Below, in pieces: positions 3,593 through 59,362 of a stretch of 64,000 nt of DNA (position 1 is the first letter of the stretch; every line of letters starts with the position of its first letter). The position numbers and the translations under genes are program-made. Source of the DNA: Gnetum montanum. Taxonomy: Eukaryota; Plantae; Gnetophyta. A model generated the notes under the pieces. The model worked only from the letters and a program-made list of their open reading frames with translations, made no database searches and was not told the origin of the DNA. The stretch is from the NCBI GenBank assembly GCA_015680685.1, contig MNCI01003467.1, forward strand, positions 124,001 through 188,000, in the 5' to 3' direction.

Positions 3593-5447
3593 TGTAACAA
3601 TTGAAAACGTCGGTGGCTGGAAACACTGAGAGGTCATCGGGTGCACAGTTTTAACCACGAATCCATGTGAGGGTTGTGCTAGATGAAAATGGAAATGGGG
3701 CACCCTAAATGGTCTGGTCGATTAGACAGGGACTTAGTTGGTGTCACTTAACCTTTCATAAACGTGTAATGCAGAAGCAATGTTTATAACGTAATATAAA
3801 AATTAATAAATGCAATGAAGTGAAAAATGATGTAAAATGCAATAATAATGAGTGGGAATTTAAAGTGAATAAGAGTTAGGAAATGCACCACCTCAAGATC
3901 ATGACTTTACTTTGTTGAAGTGGATACAATCAATTGCATAACACTAGGAAGCACAGAGATCCCAAAGGTAACCAGAGAATTCAAAGTAGGCCAACTATGT
4001 TCTTGAACATAGACTCAAAAGCCAACAATGAAAAGTGCTACAAAGGTAGTAGGAAGGAGCTAACAGAATGCCAAGAAAAAATTCCAACCATTTAATTTTT
4101 TCCAATTTTCCAACAAGAAGTGCTAAGAATGCTCAAAGTCGCCAACAGTGCTTAAAAATTTCCAACAACTAAAAGTTGCCAACCAACTCCAAGTTTTCAA
4201 ACCCTTTGAGCATTGCTCATCAGGGTATTTATAGGTCTAGGAGCCTGCGAGAGATGTAGTTTGGATGCCACATATCCTGGACTTGCGAGGTGTTGGCATG
4301 TCCATGCTGCATGGACATGCAAAGCTGATTGATGAGCAGACCATGCTGCAATCATGCTGTTGAAACTGAAGATGCTGGGGTCAAGTATGCCAACAATGTA
4401 GACAAGAAATGAGGCACACTAGAGTAGCATAGCTTCTTACTACACTATGCTATATAATGTACTGTAGCATGTTGGCATAGCGTAGTAGCTTGCTACATTG
4501 TGCTATGCTATGTAGCATAGCATAGTGTAGCCACTAGTTTGAAGAAGAAGTTGGCGTTGAAGTTAACTACATATGCTGAAAGCTTCATAGCACGTTAAGT
4601 CAAATTTTGCAACACTTGGTCAGATATGCATCTTTTGCTACACTACACTACGCTACATAGCGTAGCAGTTGGCTTTATTCATGATTCGTGTTGAAGTCAC
4701 AAATGTTTGCTTAAAGCTATGATCATGCTAACAGTTGCAACTATTGCCTTCTGCGAAGAGATATTTGTGAACTTGTTGACTTTGCATCTGAGAGGCTCAT
4801 TGATGGTTTTAAATAGTTGATACACCATGCTATGCTATATAGCATAGTATAGTGTAGTAGCCAGCGTATCCTACTTTTTGTTCAATCTGCCACTTTCTAA
4901 TGAGAAGCGTTGCTGAATATTTGATGTTAAGGACTTGAAGCTGAACAAGGCAACTAGTTTTGAAGGCTAGAGTACCTGTCGAGTGCAATTGGAATCACTA
5001 GGCAAGCTAGGCCTTTCTGTCTTGCCTTTTGCTATGTTGTGTTATGCTACATAGTGTAGCATAGTATAGCAACCTATTCTGCAATAGTTTGTACTTGATC
5101 ACCTTAGCAACTATCTTTCGAAGCCTGCTACGCTACATAGTGTAGCATAGCATAGTAAACTTATTCATTAGAAAACTTGCTAAACTATTTTGTGTAGCCT
5201 AAGCACCACTAACAACCCCACGCATCACTTCTGAGTATACTGTTAGCTAGGTGAATGGTCTAGGTGGGTAGGCTGGAGAGTCCGTCGAGCCTGTCAACAC
5301 TAGAAGTAGAAAATTTGCTAAACTAGATAGTCTAAACTCAGAGCATTCATTTCCTACCAACTTGTTGTGACGTTGCACTTGTGGAAATCCCTTACCTGAA
5401 TTCCAAGACCTTGGTCTAGGAGGGTCTTGAAATTTTAGGGTGTTTCA
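3593..5447 (-). repeat. 3' LTR of element C (1855 bp)
   Basis: Direct repeat of 18029-19864. On the minus strand it starts TGAAACACCCT and ends GTTACA; TATA box near 4227-4234 (-). Confidence 0.95.
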
Positions 5448-5460
5448 TTGGCCCCTCTTT
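5448..5460 (-). other. PPT of element C
   Basis: Minus-strand AAAGAGGGGCCAA abutting the 3' LTR TG. Confidence 0.9.
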
Positions 5461-6812: not shown

Positions 6813-7270
6813 CCAGTTTAAGGTCCTGGTAGACCACCTGATGCGTTGGTTTAAGGTATCGATAGACTGAGTTGCACTAGTTTAATGTCTTAGTAGACCA
6901 TTGCACTATTTTAACATCATAGTGAATGGTGGCTATGCTAGTTTAAGGTCCTAGCAGATCATAGTGCTAGTTTAACATCATAGCAGATGGTGGATCATCT
7001 AGTTTAACGTCATAGTGCATGGTCTGTGCCATTTTATAGTCATAGCGGACTACCTTTGCCAATTTTATGTCATAGCGGATGAGCTTTGTGCCATTTTAAT
7101 GTCATAGCAGATGTTCTATGCCAGTTTCACTTCGTAGCAGACGATCTGTGGTAGTTTTATGTTGTAGCAAACGATCTATGCTAGTTTTACATTGTAGCAG
7201 ATGTTCTTTGACAATTTTATGTCGTAGCAGACTGATTGCTTACCTTTGTTAGTTTTACATTGTAGTAGAT
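6813..7270. repeat. ~28-30 bp degenerate tandem repeat in the 3' UTR of element C
   Basis: About 15 units of gctagttt(a/t)a(c/t)(a/g)tc(a/g)tagcagat; homologous reverse-complement array at 28228-28615 in B. Confidence 0.85.
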
Positions 7271-7292
7271 GTTTTCTTAGCTTTTTCATGCA

Positions 7293-13359: not shown

Positions 13360-13837
13360 TATTTTTAGGCCATTTTAGGCCATTGCTAGTTTTAGGCCAT
13401 TCCAGTCCATGCATAGTTTTAGGCCATTCTAGGCCATGTGAATGGAAATTTTTACCAGTTTTAGGCCTTAGTGGGCCGTACTATAGTTTTAGCCCATTTT
13501 GGGCCATCACTAGTTTTAGGCCATTTCAGGCCCTAGGATAGTAGTGTAGTTTTAGGCCATTTTAGGCCATGGGATAATAGCATAGTTTTAGGCCATTTTG
13601 GGCCATGGTGGAATATAGTTTTAGGTTGTTCCTGGCCATGGGGGAATATAGTTTTAGGCCATTTTGGGCCATCGCTAGTTTTAGGCCATTTCAGGCCCTA
13701 GGATAGTAGTGTAGTTTTAGGCCATTTTAGGCCATGGGATAATAGTGTAGTTTTAGACCATTTTGGGCCATGGTGGAATATAGTTTTAGGTTGTTCTTGG
13801 CCATGGGGGAATATAGTTTTAGGCCATTTTGGGCCAT
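13360..13837. repeat. GTTTTAGGCCATT tandem array with a 165-bp higher-order period
   Basis: TATAGTTTTAG(G/C)CCATTTTGGGCCAT recurs at 13482, 13647 and 13812. Homologous array at 20845-21085 in B. Confidence 0.9.
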
Positions 13838-18028: not shown

Positions 18029-19864
18029 TGTAGCAACCAAAAATGTCAATGGCTGGAAACACCAAGAGGTTGTCTGGTGCATAGTTTTAACCTCAGATCC
18101 TTGTGAGGGCCATGCTGGATGAAAATGGAAATAGGGTGCCCTAAATAGTTTGGTCAATCAGACAGGGACTTAGTCGGTGTCACTTAACCTTTCATAAACA
18201 TGTAATGTAGAAGCAATGTTTATAACGTAATATAAAAATTAATAAATGAAATGAAGCAAAAAATGATGTAAAATGCAATAATAATGAGTGGGAATTTAAA
18301 GTGAATAAGAGTTAGAAAATGCACCACCTCAAGACCGTGGCTATACAATTCATTGCGCAACACTAGGAAGCACAGAGATCCCAAAGGTAACCAGAGCATT
18401 CAAAGTAGGCCAACTATGTTCTTGAACGTGGACTCGAAAGCCAACAATGCAAAGTGCTACAAAGGTAGCAGGAAGGAGCTAATAGAATGCCAAGAGAAAA
18501 TGCCAACCACTTAATTTTTTCCAATTTTCCAACAATAAGTGCTAAGAATGCTTGTAGTTTCCAATAGTGCTTAAAATTGCCAACCACTAAAAGTTACCAA
18601 CCAACCCCAAGTTTTCCAACCCTTTGATCATTGCTTGTCAAGGTATTTATAGGGCTAGGAGCACACGAGGGATGTGGTTTGGACACCATGTGTCCTGGAC
18701 CTGCAAGGTGCTGACGTGTCCATGCTACATGGACATGCAAAGCTGATTGACAAGCCTGCCATGCTACAATCACATTGTCAAAACTAGAGATGCTGGGGTC
18801 AAGTATGCCAATAATGCAAACAAGGAATGAGGCACACAAGAGTAGCGTAGCTACCTGCTATGCTATGCTATACAATGTAGTGTAGCATGTTGGCATAGCA
18901 TAGCAACTTACTACATTGTGCTACGCTATGTAGCATAGCACAATGTAACCACCAGTTTGAAGAAGAAGTTGGCGTTGAAGTTAACTGCATCTGTTGAAAG
19001 CTTTGTCGCACATTAAGTCAACTTTTGCAGCACTTGGTTGGATATGAATATTTTTCTATGCTACGCTACACTTCATAGTGTAGCATAGCGTAGTAGTTGG
19101 CTTCATTCATGATCCGTGTTGAAGTTGCTAATGTTTGCTTGGAGCTCTAATCATGCTAACAATTGCAACTGTTGCCTTCTACGATGAGAGATCTGTGAAC
19201 TTACTGACTTTGCATATGAGAGGCTCATTACTACTTTTAAATCATCGCTACACCATGCTACACTATATAGTATAGCATAGCATAACAACCAACATATCCT
19301 ACATTTTATTCAATATGCCACTTTATGATGAGAAGCGTTTCTAAAGATTTGATGTTAAGGAGTCGAAGCCAAACAAGGCAATTGGTTTTGAAGGCCAGAG
19401 TGCCTCCTGAGTGCAATTGGAATTACTAGGTAATTTGGGCCTTTCTGTCTTGCCTTTTTCTACGCTATGTAGTGTAGCATAGCATAGCAACCTATTCTAA
19501 AACAGTTTGTACTTGATCGCCTTAGCAACTATCTTCTAAAGCCTGCTATGCTACATAGCGTAGCGTAGCATAGCAAACTTCTTCATTACAAAACATGCCA
19601 AACTATTTTGCATAGCCTGAGCACCACTAACAACCCCATGAATCACTTCTGAGTAGATTGTCAGCTAGGTGAATGGTCTAGGTGGGTAGGCTAGAGAGTC
19701 CATCGAGCTTGTCAACACTAGAAGTAGAAAATTTACTGAACTAGAGAGAACTTAGAGCATTCATTTCCTACTAAACTGTTGTGACATTGCACTTGTGGAA
19801 ATCCCTTGCCTAAATTTTAAGACCCTGGTGAAGCAGGAGGATCTTGAAATTTTAGGGTGTTTCA
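18029..19864 (-). repeat. 5' LTR of element C (1836 bp)
   Basis: Direct repeat of 3593-5447 (9 differences in one 180-bp stretch checked, more in GC-rich parts); adjacent to the PBS. Confidence 0.95.
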
Positions 19865-20700
19865 TCTCCCATGCATTGTAAGGCTTTGGTTCATGTGTTG
19901 GCATTCATTCCTATTAAGGAAGACATGCCAATAGAGGAAAAGACTATCAATGTTGTAATGCTTCCACCTATGACCGAAGAATGAAGGCCAACACTTTTGA
20001 ATTTTCACAATGAATCCATCAAAGCTGACCTTGAGAAGGGTCAAGTAGCTACTACATTCATGTTCATAACAATTCATGTGGGTTTGTACAAGATTCACAA
20101 AGTGCACATTGATGATGGAGCAGCAACCAATGTTACCCCATTCCCTATTGTTGAAACGCTTGGCTTGGTGGATCAAATCAGGCCAACAACAATGGCCTAT
20201 TTAAAGTCATTCAATGGAGCATGTGTGGTTGTCAATGGAATAGTCATGATTGATTTCATGGTAGGGGAGCAATTCCCCACTAATGCATAGTTCATCATTG
20301 TTGAGGAGATACCTAGATTCAACTTAATCCTAGGGAGATCTTGGTTAGCCCAACTATAGGTTGTTTCTTCACCAATCCACCAAGAGATCCACTTACCTTA
20401 TGAGGATGGAGAAGTGGTGATCTTTGGTAACAACATAGCCCCTCATGCCATCAACAATGTAGACACTGAGCAAGGGTCAAAGGTAGAAATCTCCAAAGAT
20501 ATATACCACCTATGTACAATGAAAATCAATGTTATTCGACAGATGAACCAAGTAAAATGAGTGATCCCCATGAGGAAGCTCTATGGGTAGAATTACCTTT
20601 TTCAATGGTATATGATGGCCTAGAAGAGTATCACCTTGTGTCTTCCAAGGCTTATGCATCACCTAACCCACATCAGGTTAGGAAACATCTACATAATTAG
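19865..20700 (+). pseudogene. pol: Protease region of element B
   Basis: KIHKVHIDDGAATNVTP...FNLILGRSWL; collinear with 14000-14800 (-). Confidence 0.9.
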
Positions 20701-26353: not shown

Positions 26354-28225
26354 CCAGTTAAACAAAAGGCTCATAAAATCAATCCTAAGATTGCATTGGC
26401 CATCCACAATAAAATCACTAAACTTTACCAAATCAGTTTCATTCGGACAGTTGACTATGCAAACTAGGTTTCAAACATTGTAGTTGTCCCCAAGAAAAAT
26501 GGAGGTATATGCATTTGCATAGACTTCCAAGACCTAAATAAGTCAACCATTAAAGATGATTTCTGATTACCTAGTATTGACCAACTTGTTGATACTATGA
26601 CTGGTCATGCCTTGTTGTCCTTCGTGGACATATTCTCTAGGTACAACCAAATTTGCATCAACCCAAAGCACCAACTTACCACTACTTTCGTGACCCCTTG
26701 GGGGAAATTTTGTTATACAATAATTCCCTTTGGATTAAAGAACGCAAGAGCAACATATCAACATGCAATGACATACATCTTTAGTGACTATTTGCTATAA
26801 TTGCTTAATGACTATGTTGACAACATAGTAGTTAAGTCCAAAATGGCTCATGACCACATGAATGACTTGGACTGTGTCCTTAAATGTTTCCGTAGACATG
26901 ACCTTAGGCTTAATCCCAAAAAGTGTGTCTTTGTATTTAAAATTGATCGCATGTTAGGCTTTGTGGTATCAGAAACAAGAATACACGTAGACCCCAACAA
27001 GGTTAATGCTATCACCAACTTGGAACCACCAGCAAACCTTAAGGAGCTATGAGGATTACAAGGTAGGATACAATTCATACATTGATTTATCACAAGGTTG
27101 ACTAATAAGTTACAACCAATGCAACATATACTTAAAAAAGGGATCAACTTTGAGTCAACAACTCAATGCCAAGAGGCATTCAAAAACTTAAAAAAGAAGC
27201 TAGTTCAACTTCCAATAGTTTATCCTTCAAAAAGAGATAAACCTTTCTACATCTACCTTACAACCTTAGATACATCCATTGCTTCCCTGCTTTATCAAAA
27301 GCAAGACGATGGTTCTAAGGTTCCTCTTTACTACCTAAGCCATGCATTAGTAGCACATGAGGGAAAGTATAATGTTATGGAGAAAAACTATCTTTCCTTA
27401 GTCTTTGCACTTAAAAAATGGAGACACTACCTTTTCCATAGTCAAGTTAATGTCATTTGCAAAAGTAACGTACTTAGGGATGTTACAACAAACATATATG
27501 AAAGTAGTATAATAGCAAGATGGAAGGCAATAACCATGGAATTTGATCAAGATTACATAGTATAGGTGTCCATGAAAGATCAAGCAATAGCTACCTAACT
27601 CATGGCTTCACCCATAGACAATCAAGCAATGATAGATCCAAAATTCTTGGATGAGCATGTTAGTAGTATAAGCCAAGTACCTAAAAATATCAAGGCCATT
27701 TTACGCTTTGATGGTGCTTCAACCACACAAGTTGGTAGTGTCACTGCTATTATCACATTTTCTTCTAGAGAGATCTGACCCTTCACATACCACTTTGCAT
27801 TTCTTTGTACAAAAAACATGGCAGAGTACAAAGGTCTCCTTAGATGCATCTTAGTAGCTCAAGAGTTAGGCATTGAAAACATAGTAATCTGAGGTGACTC
27901 AGAGCTCGTTATTAACCAAATCATAGATGTGTATGCTTGTAAAGCACAACAAGTACAACCTTACTGTGATTTGGCAAAACACTTGCTTAAAAAATTTGCA
28001 AGCATAGATGTCCAACATATCCCCTGCAACAAAAATGTCATAGCTGATGCACTAGCTACATTAGCCTTAAGCATATCATCGAACATGTTCTCTACTTTTC
28101 CTACATAAATAGTGGATTGCACTGAACCTATAATTCACACAACAAGCATTGCATCCATAGGCACAACTCATGTCCAAGAATGGTACAATGACATCAAGGC
28201 ATACATCCAACAAGGAGAGCCCCCA
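26354..28225 (+). pseudogene. pol: RT - RNase H - aRH of element B, truncated at the start of integrase
   Basis: PVKQ, VVVPKKNGGICICIDFQDLNK, PFGLKNARATYQ, YVDN (YVDD site), LNPKKCVF, YYLSHAL...EKNYLSLVFALKKWRHYL; aRH FDGAST...AEY...GDSELVINQ...NVIADALA. Confidence 0.92.
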
Positions 28226-28227
28226 CA

Positions 28228-28615
28228 TTGATGTTAAACTAGCACAAAATTTCCACTATGATGTTAAACTAGCACAAAACATTCACTATGACATTAAACT
28301 AGAATAGACACCACTATGATGTTAAACTGGCATAGGACGTCTGCTATGACATTAAACTAGCACAAACATCCACTATGACATTCAACTAGCATAGAATGTC
28401 CTTGGGCTATGACACTAAACTGGAACCCATAGCATGGTTTGCTCTAACCTGAAACTTACCAACCACTATCTGCTATGACATTAAACTAGCATAGTGCTCT
28501 GTTGGGAGATTAAACTGGCACATCATGGTCTGCCCAGACCATAAACTAGGATCACAGTCTATTGGAACCTTAAACTAGCATAACTAGTGATCTCCCAAGA
28601 CCTAAAACTAGGTTC
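28228..28615. repeat. ~28 bp tandem repeat in the 3' UTR of element B
   Basis: Repeated ctatgacattaaactagcaca units; homologous to 6813-7270. The downstream 28720-28860 matches the reverse complement of 6600-6740. Confidence 0.85.
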
Positions 28616-29712: not shown

Positions 29713-30723
29713 CAAGGGTACTTATAGGGCTAGGGTTAGCCCAAAATATGGATCAGGTGCCATGTGGTAGTGCAGTAGATGGGACATAGGATGCTATCTA
29801 CTATGTTCATCCTATTTTATGCATAGGACACAGGACATTATCTGCTATGCTCATCGCATGTTACACGTAGGATATAGGGCACTATCTACTAGGCTTGTCC
29901 CATGTTACGTGTAGAACATGGGACGCTGGCTATTGGGCTTTTCCTGTGTTATGTGTAGGACACAAGATGTTAGCTGCTAACCTTGTCCCATGTTATGTGC
30001 AAGACATAGGATGTTGGCCGCTGGACTTGTCCTATGTTACATGTAGGACACGACACGCTATCTACTAGGCTTGTCCCGTGTTACACGCAGGACACGGGAT
30101 GTTGGCTGCTGGGCTAGTCTCATGTTACACGCAAGACATAGGACACTAGCTAGGTATGTTATGCTATGCTACATTGCACAGCATGACAGGGTCCTATGCT
30201 ATGCTACACTGAATAGCATGATAGGGTGCTATGTTGCGCTACGCTACATAGCGTAACATGGTGCTATGTTGTGCTATGTTACACATCGTGACATGGTGCT
30301 ACGTTATGCTATATTGCATAGCGTGACAAGGTGCTACGCTGTGCTATGCTATGCAGTGTGACATGTGTGCTACACTATGTTATGCTACATAGTGTGACAT
30401 GGTGCTATGTTGCACAGCGTGACATGGTGCTACGCTACACAGCATGACAGGGTGTTACACTGTGCTATGCTACATAGCATGACATGGTGCTACACTACGC
30501 TACATTACGTAGCTTGACATGGTGCTATGTTGTGCTATGCTACACAATGTAACATCTATGTAGAAAGTACCATCATTTGACACTTAGAAAATTTTTTGCA
30601 AATCTAGAAGTTGTAGGTGACCACACTCAACACTTAGAAAATATTTGGGCAAAGTGCCACCATTTTGACACTTGGCCAAATTTGTAGTCAAGATGTTGAG
30701 ACCTGAAATTTTGTGGAGTTTCA
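29713..30723 (-). repeat. U3 part of a family-1 LTR, cut just after its TATA box by element B
   Basis: The minus strand starts TGAAACTCCACAAAATTTCAGG and reaches TTTTGGGCTAACCCTAGCCCTATAAGTACC, both matching 404-740. It contains ~45-bp repeats (29780-30150) and pentamer repeats. Confidence 0.8.
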
Positions 30724-43038: not shown

Positions 43039-43972
43039 TGATGAGTCATCATTGGTTGGTTGTGTTGATGAGGCCTTGTTGATGTAGTTGACTATGTTGA
43101 TGAGCCCTTGTCCACAAGGCCCTGTCAATGCATTTCAACCTGCATCAACCATGCCTCATTGATGCAATGTCTGCCTGTCAGCTATATATACAAACGTACC
43201 AACCACATTTATGGGGGAGTTAAGATTTTAATTGTAGCAGAGCTCTTGCATTTTTTCTATTGAAAAGTTAGAATGTTTTTCCCTGAGTGCCTGTAGTAGG
43301 AGTCATTGAGTGTATGGATCTTTATTTGAGCATTGTTGTACCTAAGCACAACAGTGTGTGAAACATTAAAGACAAGCTTTCTAATAAACCTTGCAACACT
43401 TTGGATAGAGTAGCTCTTTTATTTATGCATTCAATATTTTTAATTATTTGTTAATTATTCTTAATTATTTTGAAATTATTTTCTAGCAAATGAGTTAATG
43501 AGATTATTAAGCTAGATAGATTAAATACATAAGTATGACCACTTTGAGTGTAACACATATTCACTTAGTAATCCCTACAACGTTATTACTTGGTATGCCT
43601 AGTAGTGTAGCTTTTGGTCACCTAGCAATGGATATATGGGTTCAAGACATGTATGAAAAGTGAGAATGGATACTTATGTTAGGATTAGTTAATTAGAAAT
43701 TTAGATTAATTAATTAAACTCCTTTTTATCTACATTTCAAGCACCTGCAATATAAAATAAAAAATGATAAAAATCAGATGCCTCAGTTACACTTAACCAT
43801 ACCAACATGCAGCACAAGTGTAATTAGGAGGACAAAAATTGACCTTAAGGCTAGATTCACTTCCTAAAGGCTAGTGTACTAGAAATAATAAAGTTTGCAG
43901 AATTCGACTGAGTAGTATGTGAATGCTTTGTGATTTGTATGGCTAGGAGTAGGGGTACCTCACTGCTCATAA
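43039..43972 (+). repeat. 5' LTR of element E
   Basis: Starts TGATGAGTCATCATTGG; direct repeat of 54211-55156. Confidence 0.92.
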
Positions 43973-43973
43973 T

Positions 43974-43991
43974 TGGCACCATTACCAGGGA
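43974..43991 (+). other. PBS, tRNA-Asp type (Athila)
   Basis: TGGCACCATTACCAGGGA = TGGCGCCGTTGCCGGGGA with G>A decay. Confidence 0.85.
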
Positions 43992-44127: not shown

Positions 44128-47100
44128 ATGTCTTCTTCTTCTCATACACATGATGATACTAAACCACCAATCCCATAGGAATGCAAGGTGGCATACACTC
44201 ATCTAGATAAGTTTGTATAAAATTTCACCTTCATCCTACATCAGAATGAATAGATGTGATGGCATGATATGGAGGGTAATGTTATTTTGCTCCCTGATAG
44301 GTCTGTGCCTGGAATGCTAATTAAAACCCTTAATAAGTTGGACATAGTGGATCTTCATGAAGAGCACGTTGTGGATGGATATGACACTCGGAATTATCAT
44401 CCCACTAAAACACAATGTAAGCGAGACAAATGTCAAGAGAGACTCCATGAAGCAACAAAGGGGAAGCATTACACCAGCCCCTTGTTCCTAGTAGATCAAG
44501 AGGACAATGAGAACTCTCTCTTGGAAGGTTCTTAACATGAAGATTCTTCACCCCCTGCTAACAATGGTGAGGATGTGAACTTGGCCCTGTGATCAACTAT
44601 TCATAAATCAAGTTCATGGAAGAGTGATAGCCAAGGTAGGAACTTGGGTGAACATTGCAGTAACAAGGGATCTAATTAGGGAGATCATAAAAATTGTAAG
44701 AATAGTGGTAGACACTATAGTAATGGTGGTAGTCCACCTTCCTCTTCATCCTCTTCATCTAATTTGAAACATGCCTCTTCATCTGATGGTTCTCATAGAA
44801 CCTACTATTGAAACAACCATGATGAAGGTGATTGATGAAATAATAACGATCATGGATGCCAAAAAAACTAAAGGGGTGGCCGAAATCATCATCAATGTCA
44901 TCAACGTAGTGATGATGATGAACCTTTACTAGTGACTTAAAGTATTCTTAACATTGTAGAGGCAATAAGAATTCCAACTAAGCATATAAAGGATAGTCAG
45001 AACAAGTGCCTAGATATGAACAATATCCCAAGATTTGAGGGGGGATATAACTCTGATTTGCAGACACATTTGCAACCTTTTTAAGTTGTTTGTGCCTTAA
45101 AAAACATTGAGAATGAGTGGCTAAAACTGAAGCTTTTCCAAGGAAACTCATTAAGGAAGTTGAAAGTTGGTACCAGTCCTTAGAGCTGGAATCTATCCAA
45201 AGATGGAGTACCCTGTTAGAAATATTCAATGATAAATATCAAATGTACTCTAGAGTGTCTAACCTAAGAAGGCAAATGCAAGGTTGGAAGTAAGGAGCAC
45301 ATGAACCCTTGGATGTCGCCATGGGCTAATACTATTCACTCTTACATAAATGCCCTGGCCATGGTTACTCTTAGAGGGAACAACTTCACCACATCATAGA
45401 TGGGCTTAGGGTAGAAATAAGAAGAACCCTTGGAGTGTATGCCTAAGGGAGGTTGTTTTAAATGAGATCTCATCAAGTCCAAAGGCTAATTGAGTAGGTT
45501 GCAAAAGAAGAAGGTGAGCTATGAAAAAGGGAGAGTGCTAAAAAGTATAATAGGGACCCATCCATCAAAAACTTAGAGGTTTGATTTTGTGACAAGGAGG
45601 ACTCACCACTTGATAAAGTGATGAGCAGAAGGCCTTTCCTATTCTAAAAATCTATTTCTAACATTTCAGCCAAGGTTGACAAATTATGGGAATCTTTGGA
45701 TAAAAAGTTCCAAACCACTTTGAAGATTGCTGAAGAATCCAAAGAGCAAAGTAGTAATCATAATCATAGACAACAAAAAGAAGCTAAACATGCCTACCAA
45801 AGAGGTAAGGGCAAATTTTTTGTAGTAGAGAAAGTTGTGGAGTTTGATTCTAGTGATGAAATTGAATGTGATAGCTATCAATATGAACATCTAAAGGGAT
45901 GTTTCCCTATGGTGTCACACTTACAAGAATCTAGAGTGTATGCATTGAACCCCTACCTAGCATGTAGGTAAGCTCCAAGATGATTGCCTTACACTCAAGG
46001 TAGTTCAAGAAAATTCCACAAGCAACAACAAGCTTACTACCCAAGTGAAACTCCTCCACAACCTTATCAATAATACCAATAGTGGTACCAACCACAATTA
46101 TCGAGAATGCTACCACCAAGGAAGCAATACCCTAATACGCAACCAGATCCATATGGGTACTATGTTCAACAACCCATCTTCCCTAGAAGTTTGGCAAGTC
46201 ATACATCATTCCAGCAGCACTATTACCCATCAAAGTACCACTAGTCACATTCACCATCTACTTAATGGAAAAACCCATATCTATATCCTTATCATCCTCT
46301 ACATTCCTTTGCATCTACACCTCGACCTGGAACTTAGTTACCTCTTGCTCAATCCATGCAGGGTGAAATTCCTTCATAGTTGTAGCAAAAAAATGCTACA
46401 AGGGCTATAACTCATAACTAGTTTTTCAACCAAGTGGTCTAGATAATCGATCAAGGAAAAATGACCCTTATTTTCACCCAATAGTCCTCTCCGGCCCTCA
46501 CAACCTACTCTAGCTAATAACCCTACATCTCTAGTACCCTCATCCTCTACATCAAATACCTTCAACCTCCCTTCAAACCAAGTGCTGCCTAGGATTTTCA
46601 CTATAATGCTAACTCATGTTTTTTTTTTACTGGATTAAGGCTAGCAACCTTTCTACAAAAATATTTTATCTAGGAAGTCCACTCATATTTTTATAGATTG
46701 TTAGACAAGAGCCATCAAGGCTCTTCTTGACTCTAGTTCTGGAGTTAACCTCATCTCCCATGATATGTACAATGCCTGAAACCTACCACCTCTTAAAAAG
46801 AGTAACATCCATTTAGAATTAGTAGATTAATTAATTACACTTCCTTTGGGATTAGTAGAGGACATTGTGTCCATAGTTTGTGGGTGGTCCTATCCTACTA
46901 ATTGTTTGGTAAAATCTAGATGGACAATTGCAAACGTGACTTCCCCATCATCATGGGAAGGGCTTGGTTAAGCATGATTGATGCATGAATGGGTAAAAGG
47001 GATCTATCTCTTGAGATATTTAAGGATAATGAGTTAGAAAAATTAAGAAGAAGCATATTCCATGCATTGCGTACAATGACAATGGGTGTAATTGTGTTCA

Positions 47101-49230
47101 AAAGATTTGGTCAATCAAAAGCACTTACATTAAGGCATGCAATCAGTGTACGCAAGAAGTTAATATTCAATGATGTTTGTATGTAGTAGCCACAAAATAG
47201 GAGGGCACCCAGTGGCTGATAGCTGATTCAAATAGTAGCACAATATGCATGGAGCCAATTGAGAGTTTAACTTATGCTAGGGGATTGAATTTTGCAAAAA
47301 GGGATTGAGGTAGACCCATAAAAGATAAGGGTCATCCAAGTAATAACATGCCAACCAAAAACTATCAAAGATGTTTAGTCATTCCTTGGAAACACTGGTT
47401 ACTACTAGTACTTTATTGAGAATTTCTCTAGGATTGCAAAGCTATTGGTAGATCTTACAAAGAAATATGCACCTTTCATTTGGACCAAGGAATGTGAAAA
47501 TGCATTCCAACAATTACAATTCAAACTCATAGAAACACCAATCCTACAAGCACTAGATTGGTTCAAACCATTCCATATCATTACAAATGCATCTAACTAT
47601 GCTTTGGAAGTTGTGCTCATGCAAATGGATGATAAGAAACATCCATATTATATCCATTGTGTGAGTCAAAGTATTGTGGAGGCATGGTTAAATTACACCA
47701 CCATGGAAAAATAATTAATGGCAGCGATGTATGCACGAGAAAAGTTTAGACATGATGTGTTAGGTTACAAAGTATTTATGCATATAGACCACAATGCAAT
47801 TCACTTCCTTATGAATAAGTTGAAGATGAGCCGTCATGTTATACGGTGGCTTGTGATCTTGTAGGAATTTGATATTACTATGGTAGATCAAAAAGGGACT
47901 AATAATGTGGTTGCTAACCATCTTTCTCACTTAATATGGGATAAAAAAGCGGAGGAGAGCTTGCTCTTTGATCAATTTCCAAATGAACTTCTATTTACTA
48001 GAGTAATAAATGAATAAACACCTAAAAAAGTAGTATGGTATAATGGCATCCTCACATATTTTCTCAATCAAGAAATGCCACAAGACTTGAATTTTAGAAA
48101 AAAGCAATAATTTCTTCATAAGGTCAAATACTTCATGAAAATTAATGTACACCTTTACAAGATGTGTACCAATGGCCTGATCCATTAGTGTGTCCCTGAC
48201 AACGATCAACTATGTGTTCTCCAAGATGCTCATGAAGGGCCTTGCAGAGGCCACTATGCAAGGAAACGCATGATCATAAGAATCTTAATGGCATGATACT
48301 ATTCACCCATAATCTTTAGGAATGCCCACTAGTTTATCAAGTCTTGTGAACATTGTCAATGTGATGAGGGGATGACCGCTCATATGGAAGGTCCTCAATA
48401 GTGGATTCAACCACTATAACCTTTTAACATATGGGGCATTAACTTCATGGGTTCCATCACACCCATGTCTAATAGGAAAGTATATATTATAGTAGCAATT
48501 GACTATTACACAAAATGGGCTAAAGCGGTAGCCGTTATAGATTGCACATCATCCACTACCACCAGATTTATACAACAACATATCATCAATAGGTTTAGGG
48601 TGTTGCATTCACTAATTTCTGATAATGGGACTCATTTCATAGATGCCACATTTACAAAATTAATGCAATTCTTGGGGGTAGAACATAAATTAACAACACC
48701 TTACCACTCCCAAGCCAATGGTCAAGCAGAGGTAACCAACTGGGAGATTACAAAATATTAACATAAACCATTAGCAAATATAGGAAGAATTAGAGTACAA
48801 AACTTAATGATGCTCTCTAGGCTTATCGATCAACTTGGAAACTTCCTATTGGATATTCTCCCTAATCTAAGCTCCATACACTCTCAATAGCTTGTGAACT
48901 AAGCCTTGACCTAAGTTTACCACAAAAGGAAAGATTGATCAATCTAAACATGCTATATCAAAATTGATTAATGGCCCTATCTTTAAATGAGGTGAATATG
49001 GCATTCAGTAAGCAATGCCACAATCTTAAAATTAAGAAAGTAAGGTCCTCTATTAGAACCCAACACATGTACCTCAAAAGGAAAAATTTCAATCATTGTT
49101 GGAGGGACCTTATATAATCAATCAAACCTTTCCCTCTAGAGCCATGATAATTTACAAACCTAACAACCCAAATAAAAAGTAGTGGGTTAATATCCAATAA
49201 ATTAAACCTTTCTCAGAACCAAGACTCGCC
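44128..49230 (+). pseudogene. pol: gag-pol of element E (gag ~45000-45450, PR ~46720-47030, RT thumb/RH ~47290-47930, IN ~48030-49200)
   Basis: ALLDSSSGVNLI...PIIMGRAWL; SFLGNTGYY; WFKPFHIITNASNYAL...NYTTMEK; AIDYYTKWAKA...SLISDNGTHF...PYHSQANGQAE. No YxDD core found. Confidence 0.88.
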
Positions 49231-51123: not shown

Positions 51124-53960
51124 ATGACACCCAGACAAAAGTGCCCACAGGAAGGAAAACCCTCACAACAATGGGAGAAATGACCCAAAGCTAGAAGGGG
51201 CTAGTAGGAACAAGGCCAAGAATAATAAGAGGTGACCCATGCAATGGGACCTCTTCATGAGGAGCCCAAAGTAGAATCTATTCAACAGATTCTAGAGGAA
51301 GAAGTGCCTATAGAAAAATCTCAATGAGGAGAAGTGCTTGGACTATGCCTAGGCTTGAGGTCACTCTGACTTAAGCCTACCTAGACATCATCAAATCCCA
51401 AGAGATCTAAAGATCAGTTCTTTAAGAGATAAACTTTGGACCATTTTTAGAGAAAGCTCTAGAAGATGTCAAAACACAATTGCAAACCTCTCCCATGTGG
51501 CCAATCATCACATCCAGTGGGGAGTGGTACATGGGAGAGACTTATCTCTTCTAGAACAATCGAAGGATAGGGTCTGTTGTAAAGATCAAGGATGTTCAAG
51601 TTTCCTATTCAGTAGAAGTCATTGCACAAGCACTGTGGTTTCCTAACATTGGAGCATAATTGGTAGAGATATCAACAAAAGGTGATCCTGAGGCAAAAAG
51701 GGAGTGGACCCAGCAATGTCATGGGGTTGATCGTAAAAAGTATGGTGCAATCACACTAGCAAAGTGAATTTATTTCAAGATTGTGGCCTATCATCTCAAT
51801 CCAATGGTGAGGCCAAGTAAGGTGACTACTTTCTCCACTTGAGCATGTATTGCTCTAAGTAGGAAATTTCTCGTTAACCTTCCATAGCTAATTTATTTTG
51901 AGATCAAGAAGTGCTTTAAGGAGAATGAACATGGAAGGAGGACCCTGCCCTTTCCATGCCATATAAAAAATATTTGCAAAAGGGTAGGTATTATTCACTA
52001 TTCTAATGACACTCTCAGTTATACTTCCTTGGCCTCATGGGCAAAAATCATGAAGGAAAAAACACAAGCAACCATCCAAGAAGAGGATCTACTATCACCA
52101 CCATCCACTTAGAAGACAACACCAGAGGTCCATATAGTCCTTGAGCATCTATGAAAAATCCAAGAGTAGCTCTTGAGAAAACAAGAGTAATAGGCAGGAA
52201 TGTTGGGTAGGTCCATCTATGTATCAACTAGCATTGAGTTACCTTAATGAGATGGCTCAAATAGTTAGTTAAATGGAGAAGGATGGTTCTATTTTCTCTA
52301 CTCGAATAATGCAGCTACCTTCAAGGTCGGATCCTAATGCTTAGGAGGTAATGATTTCATTAGCAACACATCATCTATTCTTAGAAATCTCTAGAAATGC
52401 TACCACTTTCTTAGTAATGTTGAAGGAAGGTGAAGAGGCAACTATCTTGGTGATGCAGCACCAAGGGAAAGAAACAATGGCAGAAGTGGTAGCTAACCAT
52501 GTAACTAAAGCATTGAATGCACCAGCAACATTTGTACTAGATGTATTTGCACTCCAAGATGTTTCAATGTCCATAGACAAGGTTAATGGAAAATTGAATG
52601 CAACCTAGCATGAACAACTGCTAGAACGACTGGTAGGAACTCTGGATATCTTTGATCTTTCAAAGAACATCACTAGAACCTAGTGTGAGCTACTAAATTC
52701 AAGGGGGAAATGCATCATTTTGGAGGGGCAACTAGAAATGGCCCAAGAGTAAAATCAATGCTTAGGCATGGAGGTTTCTAAACTTCATGCTCAACTTGTA
52801 GAGTAAAAAATTCTCAGCCTAGCAACAACAAGAGATAAAGCTATCAAAAAGCTTCAAGAATGATTTTAAAATATTGAGGAGGAAGTAGTAATTTCCATCT
52901 TCAAACAGTCTATGGAAAAATTTGAAATGCATTCAATTAAAAAGGACTTAAATTAGATGCACCAAGAAAAGGAGGCACTAACCACACAAAATCATTGCTT
53001 GTAAAAGGTTGATGCTCAAAGAAATCAAATGTAAGAATTTATTCATCAATAGTAGGAGTAGCTTGCCAAGGTTAATACTAAACTGAGGAAATTGGCCATG
53101 GAGAATATAAATTTGTCAATGGAGGAGGTACACACCTTACAACAGAAGCCTATCACTGAAATCGCCACCTAGAAGAACAAAGCTATCAAGTTTGAGTGAA
53201 AAATCACTACAAGGATCAGGTTGGCTTGCAAAAAGAAATTAATGAAAGAAAAATGTAGATGGAAAAGGATAAATTAAATGAAGCCCTCTAGCAACTTTGG
53301 TAAGGAAGAGAAATATGGCAACCCATCCTTAATGTGATTGATGCCTACAACAAAGTGAAGATCCGCTTGAAGGAGTTGTAGATTGAAGAGATGATAGAGT
53401 ATATGGAGTTGGCCAATATCTGTTATGCAAACCAGGCAATTTTGATAACTAGATGGCCATAGTCAGAATTAGGGAAGCATGTGGCTAGCTCATAACTACT
53501 ATACAAGGCCAAGTTCAAAAACCACAAGGACACCAAGAAAAAGCTTGAGATTGTTAACGCTAAACTCAAAGTTCTCAAAGGATGATTCATAGATCAATGA
53601 TCCATTGCCAAGGACCTAACTATATGGATGAATGATTACCATGAGCTAAAAAACATAGTGCAAGCATTTGACATTGAATGCAAATAGTTTGCTACCTAGT
53701 TTATCAATGCTAAGGAGTTGTTTCCAGCAATCTCATGTCCTTGGGAGGTGCCCATTCCAACCCACATTGGGAAAGATACATGGATAGTACATGATCCCAG
53801 GAGTAAGGAGGAGAAAATGAAAGCACTATTTGATGCTTTCTGCCTTCCACCTAAAGTTGTAGTAGCAGCAGGACAACCACAACCTCAAGCACCACTAGTG
53901 CATGAAGCTAGTGAAGGTTCCTTGGAGCCTTAGGAACCACCACTGCCTAGGATCATTTGA
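51124..53960 (+). pseudogene. Athila env-like / ORF2 relic: plant-transposon-protein-type domain plus long coiled coil
   Basis: Start MTPRQK; VKIKDVQVSYSVEVIAQALWFP...VNLP*LILFEIKKC...LPFPCHIKNICKRVGI; then an E/K/Q/L-rich heptad-like region at 52600-53700. Confidence 0.65.
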
Positions 53961-54210: not shown

Positions 54211-55156
54211 TGACGAGTCATCATTGGTTAGCTGCATTGACAAGGCCTCATTGATGTAGTTGATCACATCAATGAGGCCTTGTCCTTAAGGCCCTGTCAA
54301 TCCATTTTGACCTATGTTGATGATGCCTCATCAATGCAATGTTTGTTTGATGCCAATAAATATGTCCCTACCACCTTCATTTATGGGGAAGTTAAGATTT
54401 CAGTTATAGTAGAGCTCTTGCATTTTTTCCATTCAAAAGTTAGAATTTTTTCCCTAAGTGCCCATAGCAAGAGTCATTAAGTGTACAGATCTTTATTTGA
54501 GCATTGTTGTACTTGAGCATGATAGTGTGTATGGCATTAAAAATGAGCTTTCTGATAAACCTTGTAGCACTTTAGATAGATTACCTCTTTTATTTATGCA
54601 TTCAATGTTTTCAATAATTTGTTAATTATTCTCAATTTTTTCTCAATTATTTTCCAGCAATTGAGTTAATGAGATTATTAAGTTAGATAGATTAAATACA
54701 TAAGTATGACCACTTTGAGCATAACATGTATTCACTTGGTAATCCCAACAACATTATTACTTGGTATGCTTAATAGTATAGCATTTGGTCACCTAGCAGT
54801 GGATACATGGGTTCAAGATGTGTACGGAAAGTGCAAATGGATACTTATGTTAGGATTAGTTGAATGATTAGTTAATTATCAATTTAGATTAATTAATTAA
54901 ACTCCTTTTTATCTACATTTTGAGCACCTACAATATAAAATACAAAATGAAAAAAATTGGATGCCTTAGTTACACTTAATCATACCAACGTGTATCACAA
55001 GTGTAATTGGGAGGACAATCATTAACCTTAAGGCTAGATTCACTTCCTAAAGGGCTAGTGCACTAGAAATAATAAAGTCCACGAAATTCAACTGAGTCAT
55101 GTATGAATGCTTTGTGATTCATATGGTTGGGTGTAGGGGTGCCTTGCCTCTCATCA
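54211..55156 (+). repeat. 3' LTR of element E, preceded by a short PPT (GGGAGAA, 54204-54210)
   Basis: TGACGAGTCATC...CTCATCA; repeat of the 5' LTR. Confidence 0.92.
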
Positions 55157-57499
55157 ACTTTAATTCTAGTAAACCAAGTATCAAAATCAACACCTCTAAA
55201 TGTTTAGGATGCATTGGCAATGTTATATTCTAGGTAGGATATCATTTTAAGGTACTTTTTTTAGCAAAGCTATTTTACATGATATTTAATTATAATTAAA
55301 AAATAAGTTCATATCAAACATACTACATGTTCACATGTTGAAATCATATCGAAGAATCACTTGGAATAACTCTATAATTTAAATGTGAAAACTCATGTGA
55401 GATGTGTAGGAAAATGAAAATTTGATATCTTGAGCATCAATGCTCCAATTTTGATGAACCAAGGGGAAAAATCAACAATTTTGAATGTTCTAAATTGGCT
55501 AAAAAGTTAAAAATTAGTCTAAAATACTTTTTTAATACATCTATTTTATATAATATTGAATTATAATTAAAAAATCAGCTCAAAATTCAATATATAAGGT
55601 TTATTAATTTCGATGATTCCTTACCTACTCTAAGCTCTCTACTTAAAAATGCATGAGGAGAGAATTCCTTAAATAAGGTTATTATATTTCCCTTTTCATT
55701 AAGCATAAAAGTTAAGGGCCAAAATTCATAGGATATCGCCTAGGTAAAGGTTTTCAATAGAATATTTAAAAATGTTTCAAATTCTAGATTTACCACAAAT
55801 TATCTAAATATCCAAAATAAATTCAAAAATCCAAAGAAAATCTAAATATCCAAAAATGTATATTTTATCTAGGCATTTTTGAAGGCTAGGTCTTGGTTAT
55901 CCTCACTACCAATAGGAACCATACTACTATAATCAAATTATTCTTTAAATTATTTTAATGTCCAAAAATATCACAAATTTCTCGCAAAAAATCTAAAAAT
56001 GTATATTCTAAACAGGAAACTCTAAAGGCTAAGTTTTGGTTACTGTCACTATCAAAGGGACTAATCAATAGCTCTTTGAATAACCTTAATACTATCATTG
56101 GATTATCCTTTTAATTATTTAATATTCAAAATTGCCAAAAATCCATGATAGCTAAAATTCCATAAAATTCTTACAAAATAGTGTTCATATCAAAAGCTGA
56201 TCCAAAATAATTATAAAATATTCAAGAAGCATGTTAGGCAAATTTTCCATAATTCCAAAAATTAACCCAAATATAGAAATATGTATGGATAGCATTAAAA
56301 TATTATTTCTTCCTAAAAACACATGCACAAAATGATAGAAATCTAGTAGAATCTTGACATAATAGTCAAAATCATAGACAAATAGTAGGAGATTAGAAAG
56401 TAGAAATGAGAGACAAAATCCACAACAGAATAGGATAGCTATATGAAAAGAAAAGTAGGATAAACTTTCTTATGGGATCTACAAGAAAATAGTACAGTCA
56501 CATAAAAACAAAAGCAAATTAAATCTTTCTTACTTATGCTAGTAGAGCTCCTAGAATTCTCTTAGCATCTTCTTTTTCTTCCCAATGTTGTCAATTTATT
56601 TTTTAATTCACTTAGCCTATCATGCCCAAAACCCTTATAGAAACCACGATGTGATGTATCTAAGGCCTAAACCTATTTATAAGAAGAAGAACAGGAGAAA
56701 CTAAGCTCAAATTGGCTTTAAAATGAAGAAAGGGAAAAAAACATATTTTAGAAAAATGTGACAAGACATGGATTTGAAAAATCAATAGTTATAAAACAAA
56801 TGTTGAAAAAATAAGTGATAAAAATGAATGGTGGAAAAAATAGGAGGCAGTGATGAAAGAGTAACATATGTTATATGTTATATCATATAATATATTGACT
56901 TTTGTTTTCATTTCACATGTGAACATGTTTAAAATCCAATGTTGGACTTTTCATTTTTGAAAAATTTAATTTTAAATTTTATATCATTTTCATTTTTGTA
57001 AGTTTGTTTCCCCTTTTTCCTCTTTTCATTAATACCCTTGCACTCCAACACTCATAACATGCATACTGAGACTCCAAATCATTTGAACTTACATGACCCT
57101 TATCAAGTGTTCTACCAAATTATATGTTGAAATCTTATCTAGGTTTTACTTATCATGGTCTCCTAGTTCACATGTCAAAACTTTTATAATATTTTAGCAA
57201 ACTAGAAAACATGATATCTCAAAAATCGTAACTCTAATTCAACATTTCTCCATAAATAGAGTATTATATAATCAGGATATGTTTTGGTTAGGGCTCAGGT
57301 TCAAAATTTCTCCATAAATAGAGTATTATATAATCACATATGCATAATAAAATAAAAGGATGCATAATAAAGATTGTATATACATAACTAATATGCATAA
57401 AAAATAAAATATGCATTGTCAAATACTTTTAAAGGCATGATAATTGAAAAAAAGAGAAACTTCCTAGGATAATTAGATTTCAACATCTAATCATAAAAT

Positions 57500-57827
57500 A
57501 TTTAGAAGATCTATGAATGGGGCTCCAATGTTAGTGAAACAAAGGATAGAAAATTTTCAAAAAATACCCTAACAGGGAGATTGCATTAACTTATGTTGAA
57601 CAATTATCTAATCTATTTTCCTATTTTATTCTCCTGTTAACATCAATTTTTGAGCATTTTTATCCCAATAATAGGCTTTTAAGACCTTAGGTGATTGAAA
57701 AGACTACCTAAGGTACCTCAAATACCTTTTGAGGCCTATGAATCCTGAGGTAAAACTATTTCATACAAATTTCTTTGATTTCTAGTGTCATATTTTTCTA
57801 TCACTATAGTTTTTTGGTACTAGAAGG
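57500..57827 (+). mobile_element. 3' end of an old Tat 5' LTR (ends ~57808) plus decayed tRNA-Asn PBS (57815-57827)
   Basis: TAAGACCTTAGGTGATTGAAAAGACTACCTAAGGTACC...TTTTCTATCACTATA followed by TGGTACTAGAAGG. Confidence 0.6.
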
Positions 57828-57865
57828 GTCTTCAACTAATTTCTTCATCCAATGTTGAACACAAC

Positions 57866-58906
57866 TGATGAGACGCGACTTGCACTGGGCCGCGATATCG
57901 CGTCTTCTCCTGCGATATCACGTACGCGATATCACGTCCCGCCACCATATCTATAAATAAGAGGCAGCACTCCCTTCATTTGGGAAATCCTGGCTAGTGT
58001 AGCGAAGCTCTGGCAGATTGATCACTCCAGAGTTAGAATTTTTCCCCATGTGCCCACAGTAGGAGTCCTAGAGTGAACGGCTCTTTATTCGAGCAGCTTG
58101 TAACCTGAACCCAAGTTGTGTACGGCAATAAAGACGAACTTGTTTGGATAAACCTTGCAGCACGTGGTTTCATTTATTGCTTTATTTCCTGCTTTCCTAG
58201 TGCGTTCAAGTACGACTTGATTACGAGCGTCTACGGACGTGTACGGCTAGTCAAGGAATCGGCTGCTTGACGCAATGCATGAGTACGACTCAATTACGAG
58301 CATTGGATGCTTGGTAACCCAGTAGCGTATTCCAGGATTCTGCGCTTGGTAACTCCCGGGTCTAATGTGTACGGCTAGTTGAGGAATCGGCTGCTCATTG
58401 CTAGGCTAGATCGTGTGATAAGTACGACTTAGTTACGAGCACCCACGGGTGTGTACGGCTGGCTAAGGAATCGGCTGCTTATCACACGTAGGCTAAATAG
58501 GTGCCTCAGTACGACCACTTCGAGCACTTGCGTTACGTGTGGCGATCCCAGTAACGATTAGCGTTTGGTAAGCTGCAGTTGCATAGTTCAGGGTGTGTCC
58601 GGTAAGTGGGAACGGATGCTGACGCTAGTTAATTTAGACTTAGATCTTAGTTAGAGTTAGTTTAGTTTTCTCAACCCTTTCTCCTGGTAGCATAGAAGAT
58701 AAGCCGAAAATACCAAAAAAATCACATACCTCAGACTTGCTTAACCATACACCGTGACACATACAAGCAAGCCTGGGAAGACAACGAATGATTAACCCCA
58801 AGTGTTTCTTGTGGCGTTAAGGCATTTAGTCTGCGGAGTTCGACCGGATCGCGCGTGTACACTCGTATTCGTATGGTGGAGTGTAGGGGTACCTCGCCAC
58901 TCATCA
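57866..58906 (+). mobile_element. Young solo LTR (1041 bp) related to the element E LTRs
   Basis: TGATGAG...CTCATCA terminal inverted repeat; perfect TSD ACAAC (57861-57865 and 58907-58911); TATAAATA at ~57952; R/U5 homologous to the E LTRs; CpGs intact. Confidence 0.95.
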
Positions 58907-59362
58907 ACAACCATTGTTTTCATGTTTTCTGTGAGTTATATCCATTGTATTCAATGTGTGAGAGTTTTTTTTGAAGTGATTTGAATACTGACATTTTTAG
59001 CACAACATTTTTACTTCTTATCCTTGCACCAGCATTTTTTCCCTAGTCATAAACATTTCTCGTGTAGTAAAAATCCTAAAAATACACTAACCTTTGATTT
59101 CCTAGATCCTCAAAATTTGCTCTTTTTTTTTCTTGAAATCAAAGCATTGCCACAAAAATGCTATGTTTAAAACACAATGTTTGATATGCTATGTTTAATA
59201 TGTTCTTCTTATAATTGCAATTCATTTTATTTTCCTATTTTTGTACCTATATTTACATTTTATTCATCATTTCTTTTGTTGTAGTTTCTACACTTTGTAG
59301 TGTTCACACTATACATTACTACACATTTATGTTGATACAATGTATACTCTACATATAATTTC

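Follow-up and report, generated by a model that had tools for sequence, protein, structure and literature searches.

The R and U5 regions of a young Athila-type LTR contain ten copies of a small RNA sub-module, all on the + strand and spread over five predicted hairpins, the first of which holds the likely poly(A) signal in its stem. On balance, we favour the view that the ten sub-modules and five hairpins make up an array of protein-binding sites in the leader of the genomic RNA which serves export/packaging, the first hairpin probably also masking the promoter-proximal poly(A) signal. Loop letters that stay fixed on exchangeable stems and recur ten times at about one helix turn would be the anatomy of a multi-site binding element. 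The features concerned, within the window (the whole stretch of 64,000 nucleotides that was analysed), are as follows, the hairpins being named u0 to u4:

57853..58909, + strand: solo LTR from an Athila-type Ty3/gypsy family that is young and of high copy number, judged by its ends TGTTGA...TCAACA, depth and CpG observed/expected ratio (o/e)
57952..57959, + strand: TATA-like box, judged by sequence
58071..58141, + strand: predicted hairpin u0, two oppositely oriented sub-modules flanking an 8-bp helix with the poly(A) signal
58127..58132, + strand: AATAAA, likely poly(A) signal, in the 3' arm of u0 stem2
58160..58199, + strand: T/GT-rich stretch, likely downstream element, a variable spacer with many substitutions and indels among contigs
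58202..58273, + strand: predicted hairpin u1, a tandem pair of sub-modules with an 11-nt spacing and, at 58231-58236, a c(UACG)g cap, z -3.07
58279..58398, + strand: predicted hairpin u2, two tandem sub-modules and a long apical arm, UAAC x UAACUC internal loop at 58309-58361
58412..58488, + strand: predicted hairpin u3, a tandem pair of sub-modules and, at 58443-58448, a c(CACG)g cap, z -3.47
58503..58625, + strand: predicted hairpin u4, the variant common to the family of the older element E, a tandem pair of sub-modules with a 9-nt spacing and, at 58540-58575, an apical CGAUC x UAAG loop

The LTR is 1,057 bp in size (57853-58909), and its ends are TGTTGA and TCAACA. No primer site lies beside this copy, no internal part of the young element is present here and the flanks TCCAA and ACCAT do not form an intact target-site duplication; the absence of a primer site and of an intact duplication identifies it as a solo LTR. 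The two flanks (57848-57852 and 58910-58914) are identical at three of five letters, the left one belonging to a mid-copy repeat and the right one to low-copy DNA, which was likely brought about by recombination between two elements or by a deletion. The CpG o/e is 1.06 in the young LTR compared with 0.11-0.32 in its surroundings and 0.11-0.15 in the LTRs of E. Between 51,741 and 78,822 contigs fell on the young LTR in three DNA runs, and the summed depth in run X1, which is not a copy number, was about 1e5-4e6 inside the LTR against about 5 in the right flank, the high depth being confined to 57853-58909. The stretch was found, whole or in part, in 20 of the 24 runs listed, which come from 13 studies with eight organism labels and an air metagenome. 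Loose contig ends behind the LTR's 3' end carry the Athila primer site TGGCGCCGTTGCC (runs X1 and X9), a motif given for Athila in the description of ATHILAfinder (bioRxiv 10.64898/2026.03.20.713144), and the + strand is therefore the sense strand. Transcription is predicted to start near 57983 from the TATA spacing. The U3 region is very short (about 130 nt), with CG-rich inverted repeats at 57884-57941 just upstream of the TATA box which fold with -24.1 kcal/mol (DNA letters, RNA parameters) and which may be a DNA element like the Sirevirus boxes. Near the end of U5 there is an extra hairpin (58830-58885) in a stretch conserved with E, different from the module.

The first-pass annotation had described four structured units with their stem2 and stem3 arms and two related copies in the LTRs of E, and all of these were found where it had placed them. 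Its total was too low since the fifth hairpin at 58071-58141 had been overlooked, and the true repeat proved to be smaller than a hairpin. It has an A facing G-U/A-A/C, two CG/CG pairs and a G bulge of 2 nt. Its strands read W-CG-A and G-(U/A)-(A/C)-(U)-CG-G-(C/U/A)-W, which form a one-by-three loop, the two CG/CG pairs and the 2-nt bulge. In half of the sub-modules, GUA is replaced by GAA or GUC. There are two tandem sub-modules in each of u1 to u4, spaced 11 nt apart in u1-u3, which is about one helix turn, whereas in u0 two of them stand head to head around the poly(A) signal. A descriptor of the sub-module, derived from these same data, gave 14 pairings within the LTR, of which 10 are cognate and 4 join different units; the minus strand had none, and the mean in shuffles was 0.004. 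An inner-loop descriptor found five copies in the LTR, whereas the window's minus strand and 2000 dinucleotide shuffles of the LTR gave none; since it was made from these copies, this shows non-random repetition and not function.

The loops had been taken as invariant, and their letters are indeed fixed, but AGTA/TGCT and CGA/TCG are predicted to pair, so that they are invariant helices with bulges rather than open loops. The fifth stem3 pair once assigned to the units u1 and u3 would close a 2-nt loop and has to be given up; stem3 of u1 is actually capped by c(UACG)g and that of u3 by c(CACG)g, both of the YNMG type of stable tetraloop. The TTGGTAA repeat reported for the apical loops is present, its identity being refined to the two strands of a near-symmetric apical internal loop of u2 and u4, closed by UGG/CCR and CCA/UGG, with AGCG/CGCU changing to AACG/CGUU between u2 and u4. 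An alternative AGUA/GAA register is possible in u4, where CUCAGUACGA ... GGAAC (58506-58515 with 58609-58613) presumably resembles the sarcin-ricin loop of large-subunit rRNA. A kink-turn or sarcin-ricin reading, judged by eye, was rejected because it is at odds with the stronger Watson-Crick register and with the exchange among GUA, GAA and GUC. Strings like 5' splice sites, G|GTAAGT and G|GTAAGC, occur at 58602 and 58568 (also at 58314 and 58349), in u4 and in the TTGGTAA motif, the one at 58602 being missing from E. U1 binding is reported to suppress a nearby poly(A) signal in HIV-1 and foamy virus (PMC12789967), and by analogy U1 on these strings could do the same in the LTR.

The compensatory stem changes claimed earlier were borne out. 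In an alignment of six copies, both sides change in 14 of the 25 pairs and 93.8% of the cells pair, a result equalled by none of 500 shuffles; the copies are related, and thus this covariation is support and not a probability or P value. RNAalifold, run unsupervised on the six copies, gave the same rod with the bulges on the 3' strand. In stem2 and stem3 of u0-u4, all 55 positions pair, which is the best of 120 arm permutations (mean 39). A covariance model built from u0 only and run over the 64 kb placed u3 at the top of its 10 non-training hits and u1 in third place (E-values 0.024 and 0.27), and the model from the six copies first noted recovered u0 weakly (E-value 0.69). The u0 alignment has five double changes, but three of them are in CG/CG pairs and can therefore stem from CpG decay. 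The whole comparison set comprises nine hairpins from two related families only.

Variation among the copies of the young family points in the same direction. Among the contigs of run X1, 21 changes reach at least 5%; nine of them are at paired positions, of which seven keep the pair alone and one breaks it, a tally biased toward structure since C>T changes keep C-G pairs unaided. G58229A (63%) is matched by C58238T (59%) in this run, both frequencies being those of single positions. This pair of changes is not plain CpG decay because neither of the adjacent CpG letters, 58228 and 58239, is among the changes listed at 5%. G58214A disrupts a pair and reaches 4.8% in X1 and 24% in X15. Eight changes of at least 5% in X1 were scored in u2-u4 (among 40 of the 207 entries): four turn a wobble into a standard pair, two break a pair and two are at unpaired positions. 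No change of at least 5% was seen in X1 within 58071-58093 or 58127-58134, the latter being the region of the poly(A) signal. At contig joints, units are repeated and apical arms swapped in other copies while the core is kept.

The earlier statement that G-U pairs favour the + strand RNA also holds. Such pairs, valid on the + strand only, make up 14 of the 60 stem pairs, and the RNA folding energy is -147.7 for the + strand and -108.2 for the - strand. Part of this advantage of 39 kcal/mol is due to composition since shuffles differ by 27; folded as DNA, the strands differ in energy by no more than 2 kcal/mol. Covariation, strand asymmetry and the lack of an Rfam hit thus support an undescribed cis-acting structure of the RNA strand in R/U5, as had been proposed.

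The thermodynamic calculations argue against a stable array. Compared with shuffles, only u1 (z -3.07) and u3 (z -3.47) are more stable (u0 +0.41, u2 -0.43, u4 +1.18), and the four-unit array is no more stable than its shuffles (z -0.41). In the whole-leader ensemble, the stems of u0, u2 and u4 have a probability of at most 0.06, other pairings being preferred; in local folding, the values are 0.64 for u0 stem2, 0.59 for u2 and 0 for u4. Forcing all five hairpins costs 16 kcal/mol. The energy model omits non-standard loop contacts and bound protein, but we consider the gap to be real nonetheless.

In u0, the central helix is formed by TCTTTATT pairing with AATAAAGA. AATAAA lies 175 nt after the TATA box and is followed by a T-rich stretch, and TGTACGGC adjoins it, an arrangement retained in E. 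As in retroviral poly(A) hairpins, a poly(A) signal in R is thus placed within a conserved predicted stem, whose pair probability depends on context (0.95 in 57983-58300 and 0.05 in the whole leader). Burial of the 6-mer signal is not unusual for this RNA (38th percentile). In run X17, guessed to be RNA, two contigs stop at 58162, where the depth falls from 729 to 29, and one contig of X15 stops at 58160; contigs of the DNA run X1 likewise stop at 58160 with a depth dip there. No poly(A) tails or poly(A) loose ends were seen on contigs of the RNA runs. In RNA run X19, only 58141-58300 is covered, and contigs are no proof of transcription.

The older element E belongs to a second, related family. 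Its LTRs, near 43039-43970 and 54211-55158, are 83% alike, and its Athila primer site, its gag, RT-RNaseH and integrase regions and its 3' extra ORF are present but all of them broken. The primer site and the gag, RT-RNaseH, integrase order followed by a 3' extra ORF are those of Athila, the Transposase_32 match of the ORF being below the curated cut-off. An Athila element points to a plant as the host. The features of E are as follows:

43303..43383, + strand: u0 counterpart in the 5' LTR, CpG-decayed, with ATTAAA at the signal position
43528..43678, + strand: u4 counterpart in the 5' LTR, from structure and sequence comparison
43974..43991, + strand: Athila-type primer binding site, decayed, motif as in ATHILAfinder
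45144..48710, + strand: broken gag-pol with Retrotrans_gag, RT_RNaseH, Integrase_H2C2 and rve, arranged as in gypsy elements and with many stops (read as X)
51576..51992, + strand: broken 3' extra ORF with a Transposase_32 (PF20167) match, E-value 2.9e-7, 31 bits (curated cut-off 45)
54474..54554, + strand: u0 counterpart in the 3' LTR, from structure and sequence comparison
54699..54849, + strand: u4 counterpart in the 3' LTR, from structure and sequence comparison

One copy of the motif had been noted in each LTR of E; this u4-type copy is present, but the number is two, since both LTRs retain u0, with different apical stems, as well as u4. The ATTAAA of E results in a U-U mismatch in stem2. 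On this sequence comparison, u1-u3 are an expansion in the young family. No intact relative of the extra ORF was found among 269 candidates, which is a weak test. A second long pair of direct repeats in the window (3593-5448 and 18029-19865, 84% alike and 14.4 kb apart) likely represents the LTRs of a further family; no convincing copy of the module was found in this pair or in the other LTR families of the window. Degenerate tandem arrays with units of 25-35 nt and longer occur at 30133-30595, 6962-7286, 13360-13811 and 28203-28587.

The searches reached no homologue beyond these two families. Rfam 15 at the gathering score produced no hit in the whole window, and at E-values up to 10 it produced four weak hits in 57800-58950, none of them within 58060-58630. 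A scan of metagenomes with a loose pattern gave 119 loci, none with stems; blastn of the LTR against metagenomes gave no hit, the six-copy model gave none on 100 of 131 metagenome loci, and two module patterns gave none in viral contigs. Nine hits of the LTR-end/primer pattern in viral contigs were all unrelated, and three pattern hits in prokaryote genomes all lacked the 5' arm. In the literature searched, mostly outside subscription journals, there was no description of the module or of an RNA structure at an Athila poly(A) signal, and the exact motif strings led to unrelated papers only. As far as searched, the module is undescribed. The LTR structure is a retroelement leader element which belongs to none of the known families compared, and packaging or export is its likeliest role on the model considered here.

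R and U5 are transcribed at both LTRs, and u0 alone can therefore not distinguish the 5' from the 3' end. With 3' cleavage near 58160, the RNA would keep five hairpins at its 5' end and only u0 at its 3' end, so that the array would single out the end that adjoins the primer site. At the CG steps, the bulges might open the major groove for a repeatedly binding protein, and protein on both sides of the u0 helix might clamp the poly(A) signal shut. The array would mark full-length RNA for nuclear export and packaging. Candidate partners are Gag or the 3' extra-ORF protein in the first place and host export factors in the second. A more specific version, which we regard as rather doubtful, is a Rev/RRE-like circuit of Athila, in which the env-like 3' extra ORF would encode a nuclear RNA-binding adaptor that assembles on the array of ten sites, keeps the 5' poly(A) signal closed and permits unspliced genomic RNA to be exported. 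The 3' extra ORF of a sunflower Athila with the same Pfam match is predicted to be nuclear (PMC11728184).

The modules may instead be architectural or translational, shaping the long leader for ribosome shunting or internal entry without a dedicated binding protein, which we consider unlikely. The leader has eight AUGs with ORFs of 4-23 codons; a protein-coding explanation of the LTR structure was rejected because these are the only AUG ORFs and no ORF reaches 150 aa. The 4-codon ORF at 58048-58062 stops 8 nt upstream of u0 and resembles the short ORF before a stem that is required by CaMV shunting (PMC2241666), but its AUG is missing from both LTRs of E. Moreover, shunt elements are described as exchangeable between viruses (PMC2241666), whereas the loop letters here are fixed and repeated ten times.

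Slightly less credible is a role of the module solely in 3' end formation, where it would bind or block cleavage factors, with the U5 copies as extra sites or decoys. UGUA is a cleavage-factor-I site, and TGTA stands just before the signal, in keeping with the conserved contact of TGTACGGC with AATAAA. The replacement of GUA in half of the sub-modules argues against such a role, as does the position of eight of the ten 70-490 nt past the signal, within hairpins.

There is little to be said for an RNA decoy or shield against silencing, in which bulged rods would give rise to small RNAs or withstand them, much as in the case of the CaMV 8S leader RNA. Long imperfect hairpins in a leader that ends at the primer site are common to both (PMC4462095), but pairing would suffice for this purpose, and neither ten copies with fixed letters nor capped tetraloops would be needed.

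A new class of small self-cleaving ribozyme, also suggested by the first-pass annotation, is quite improbable and found no support. Fixed loops between free stems would suit it, lantern-shaped cores of 31-35 nt exist (PMC11620745), and ribozymes occur in plant LTRs in the form of retrozymes (PMC4918200). The latter share with the module an RNA motif within a plant LTR and a relation to Ty3/gypsy, but their described hammerhead core, tRNA-Met primer site and non-coding body are not those of the young LTR family. The earlier exclusion of hammerhead, hairpin, twister and pistol cores was upheld: no ribozyme family was hit over the modules at E-values up to 10, the hammerhead strings CUGANGA and GAAA, which belong to a core in a three-way junction, are both absent from 58061-58640, and so are the hairpin and twister core strings and one of three pistol strings. 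The twister-sister-like (lantern) core is described as a 5 x 6 internal loop whose longer strand has a conserved CA step (PMC11620745), and no such step occurs in the longer strands GUACGGC, GAAUCGGC and GAACGGC of the module. Ten sites would not be needed either. This reading is rated low because cleavage in U5 would part R from the primer site and thus break the strong-stop template, which reverse transcription has to copy.

Just as improbable are repeats acting at the DNA level, as factor-binding sites or as template-switching by-products with no RNA role: the number of units varies among copies and Sirevirus LTRs (Ty1/copia) likewise have high-copy, CG-rich repeated motifs, taken as DNA elements (PMC2829016), but these are palindromic CGG-CCG boxes upstream of the TATA box, whereas the modules lie 120-670 nt downstream of it, are not palindromes, need G-U pairs and have compensatory changes and YACG tetraloops.

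A protein-binding array, the explanation favoured here, bears on the question of how plant LTR retrotransposons select, export and package their genomic RNA, and on the role of the Athila extra ORF, which is said to 'remain unclear' (PMC7264820). The LTRs of plant Metaviridae are reported to have resisted modelling (PMC3601003). The module is short and sharply defined, has natural loop and stem variants, is tied to a poly(A) signal and belongs to a family abundant in several species, which makes it directly suited to probing, mutation and use as bait. It may bring to light a new motif of RNA-protein recognition or a way of export in plants that does without TAP/NXF1. A Rev/RRE-like circuit, if true, would be the first response element to come from an LTR retrotransposon of plants, and the extra ORF of Athila would acquire a function.

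Among known systems, Rev-type elements such as RRE, RxRE, RmRE and Cer1 CERV have repeated bulged sites on a structured RNA, on which an element-encoded adaptor multimerises (PMC10309623). Several bulged sites on one structured RNA are present in the LTR array too, where binding would have to be assumed, and Athila has an extra ORF awaiting explanation; the array differs in that its putative adaptor is only a broken candidate ORF in E, in its plant host and in the lack of an Rfam match. The CG/CG-plus-bulge core of the sub-module resembles what we take to be the arrangement of RRE stem IIB. The constitutive transport element (CTE) of MPMV has twin internal loops in a two-fold arrangement on one rod, and this arrangement resembles that of u0. 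The CTE loop strings are absent here. The CTE needs TAP/NXF1, whose homologues are reported missing from plant genomes (PMC3020307), and it is reported to have given no export enhancement in Arabidopsis (PMC8421220). A CTE in the strict sense, one of the roles proposed at first, is thereby excluded.

The HIV-1 poly(A) hairpin, like u0, has the poly(A) signal of R in a stem-loop, which is proposed to suppress its use in the 5' LTR (PMC12789967). In u0, the helix is flanked by two module copies, with eight more in U5, and there is no sequence likeness. The CaMV 35S leader, a precedent from plants, unites a poly(A) signal, a packaging signal and an enhancer of export in a single structure that precedes the primer site, and it recruits TREX factors together with the viral coat protein and RT (PMC8421220). 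Like the LTR array, it belongs to a plant retroelement and is a structured leader reaching from the transcription start to the primer site, with a promoter-proximal poly(A) signal on a stem and short upstream ORFs; the export and packaging roles described for CaMV are a proposal for the array. CaMV differs in having one large stem-loop, in which the source describes no repeated bulge module, and in its virus family and primer (PMC8421220). By analogy, the LTR array would work most like the CaMV 35S leader, and also like the HIV-1 poly(A) hairpin and the Rev-type elements, while being a member of none of these groups.
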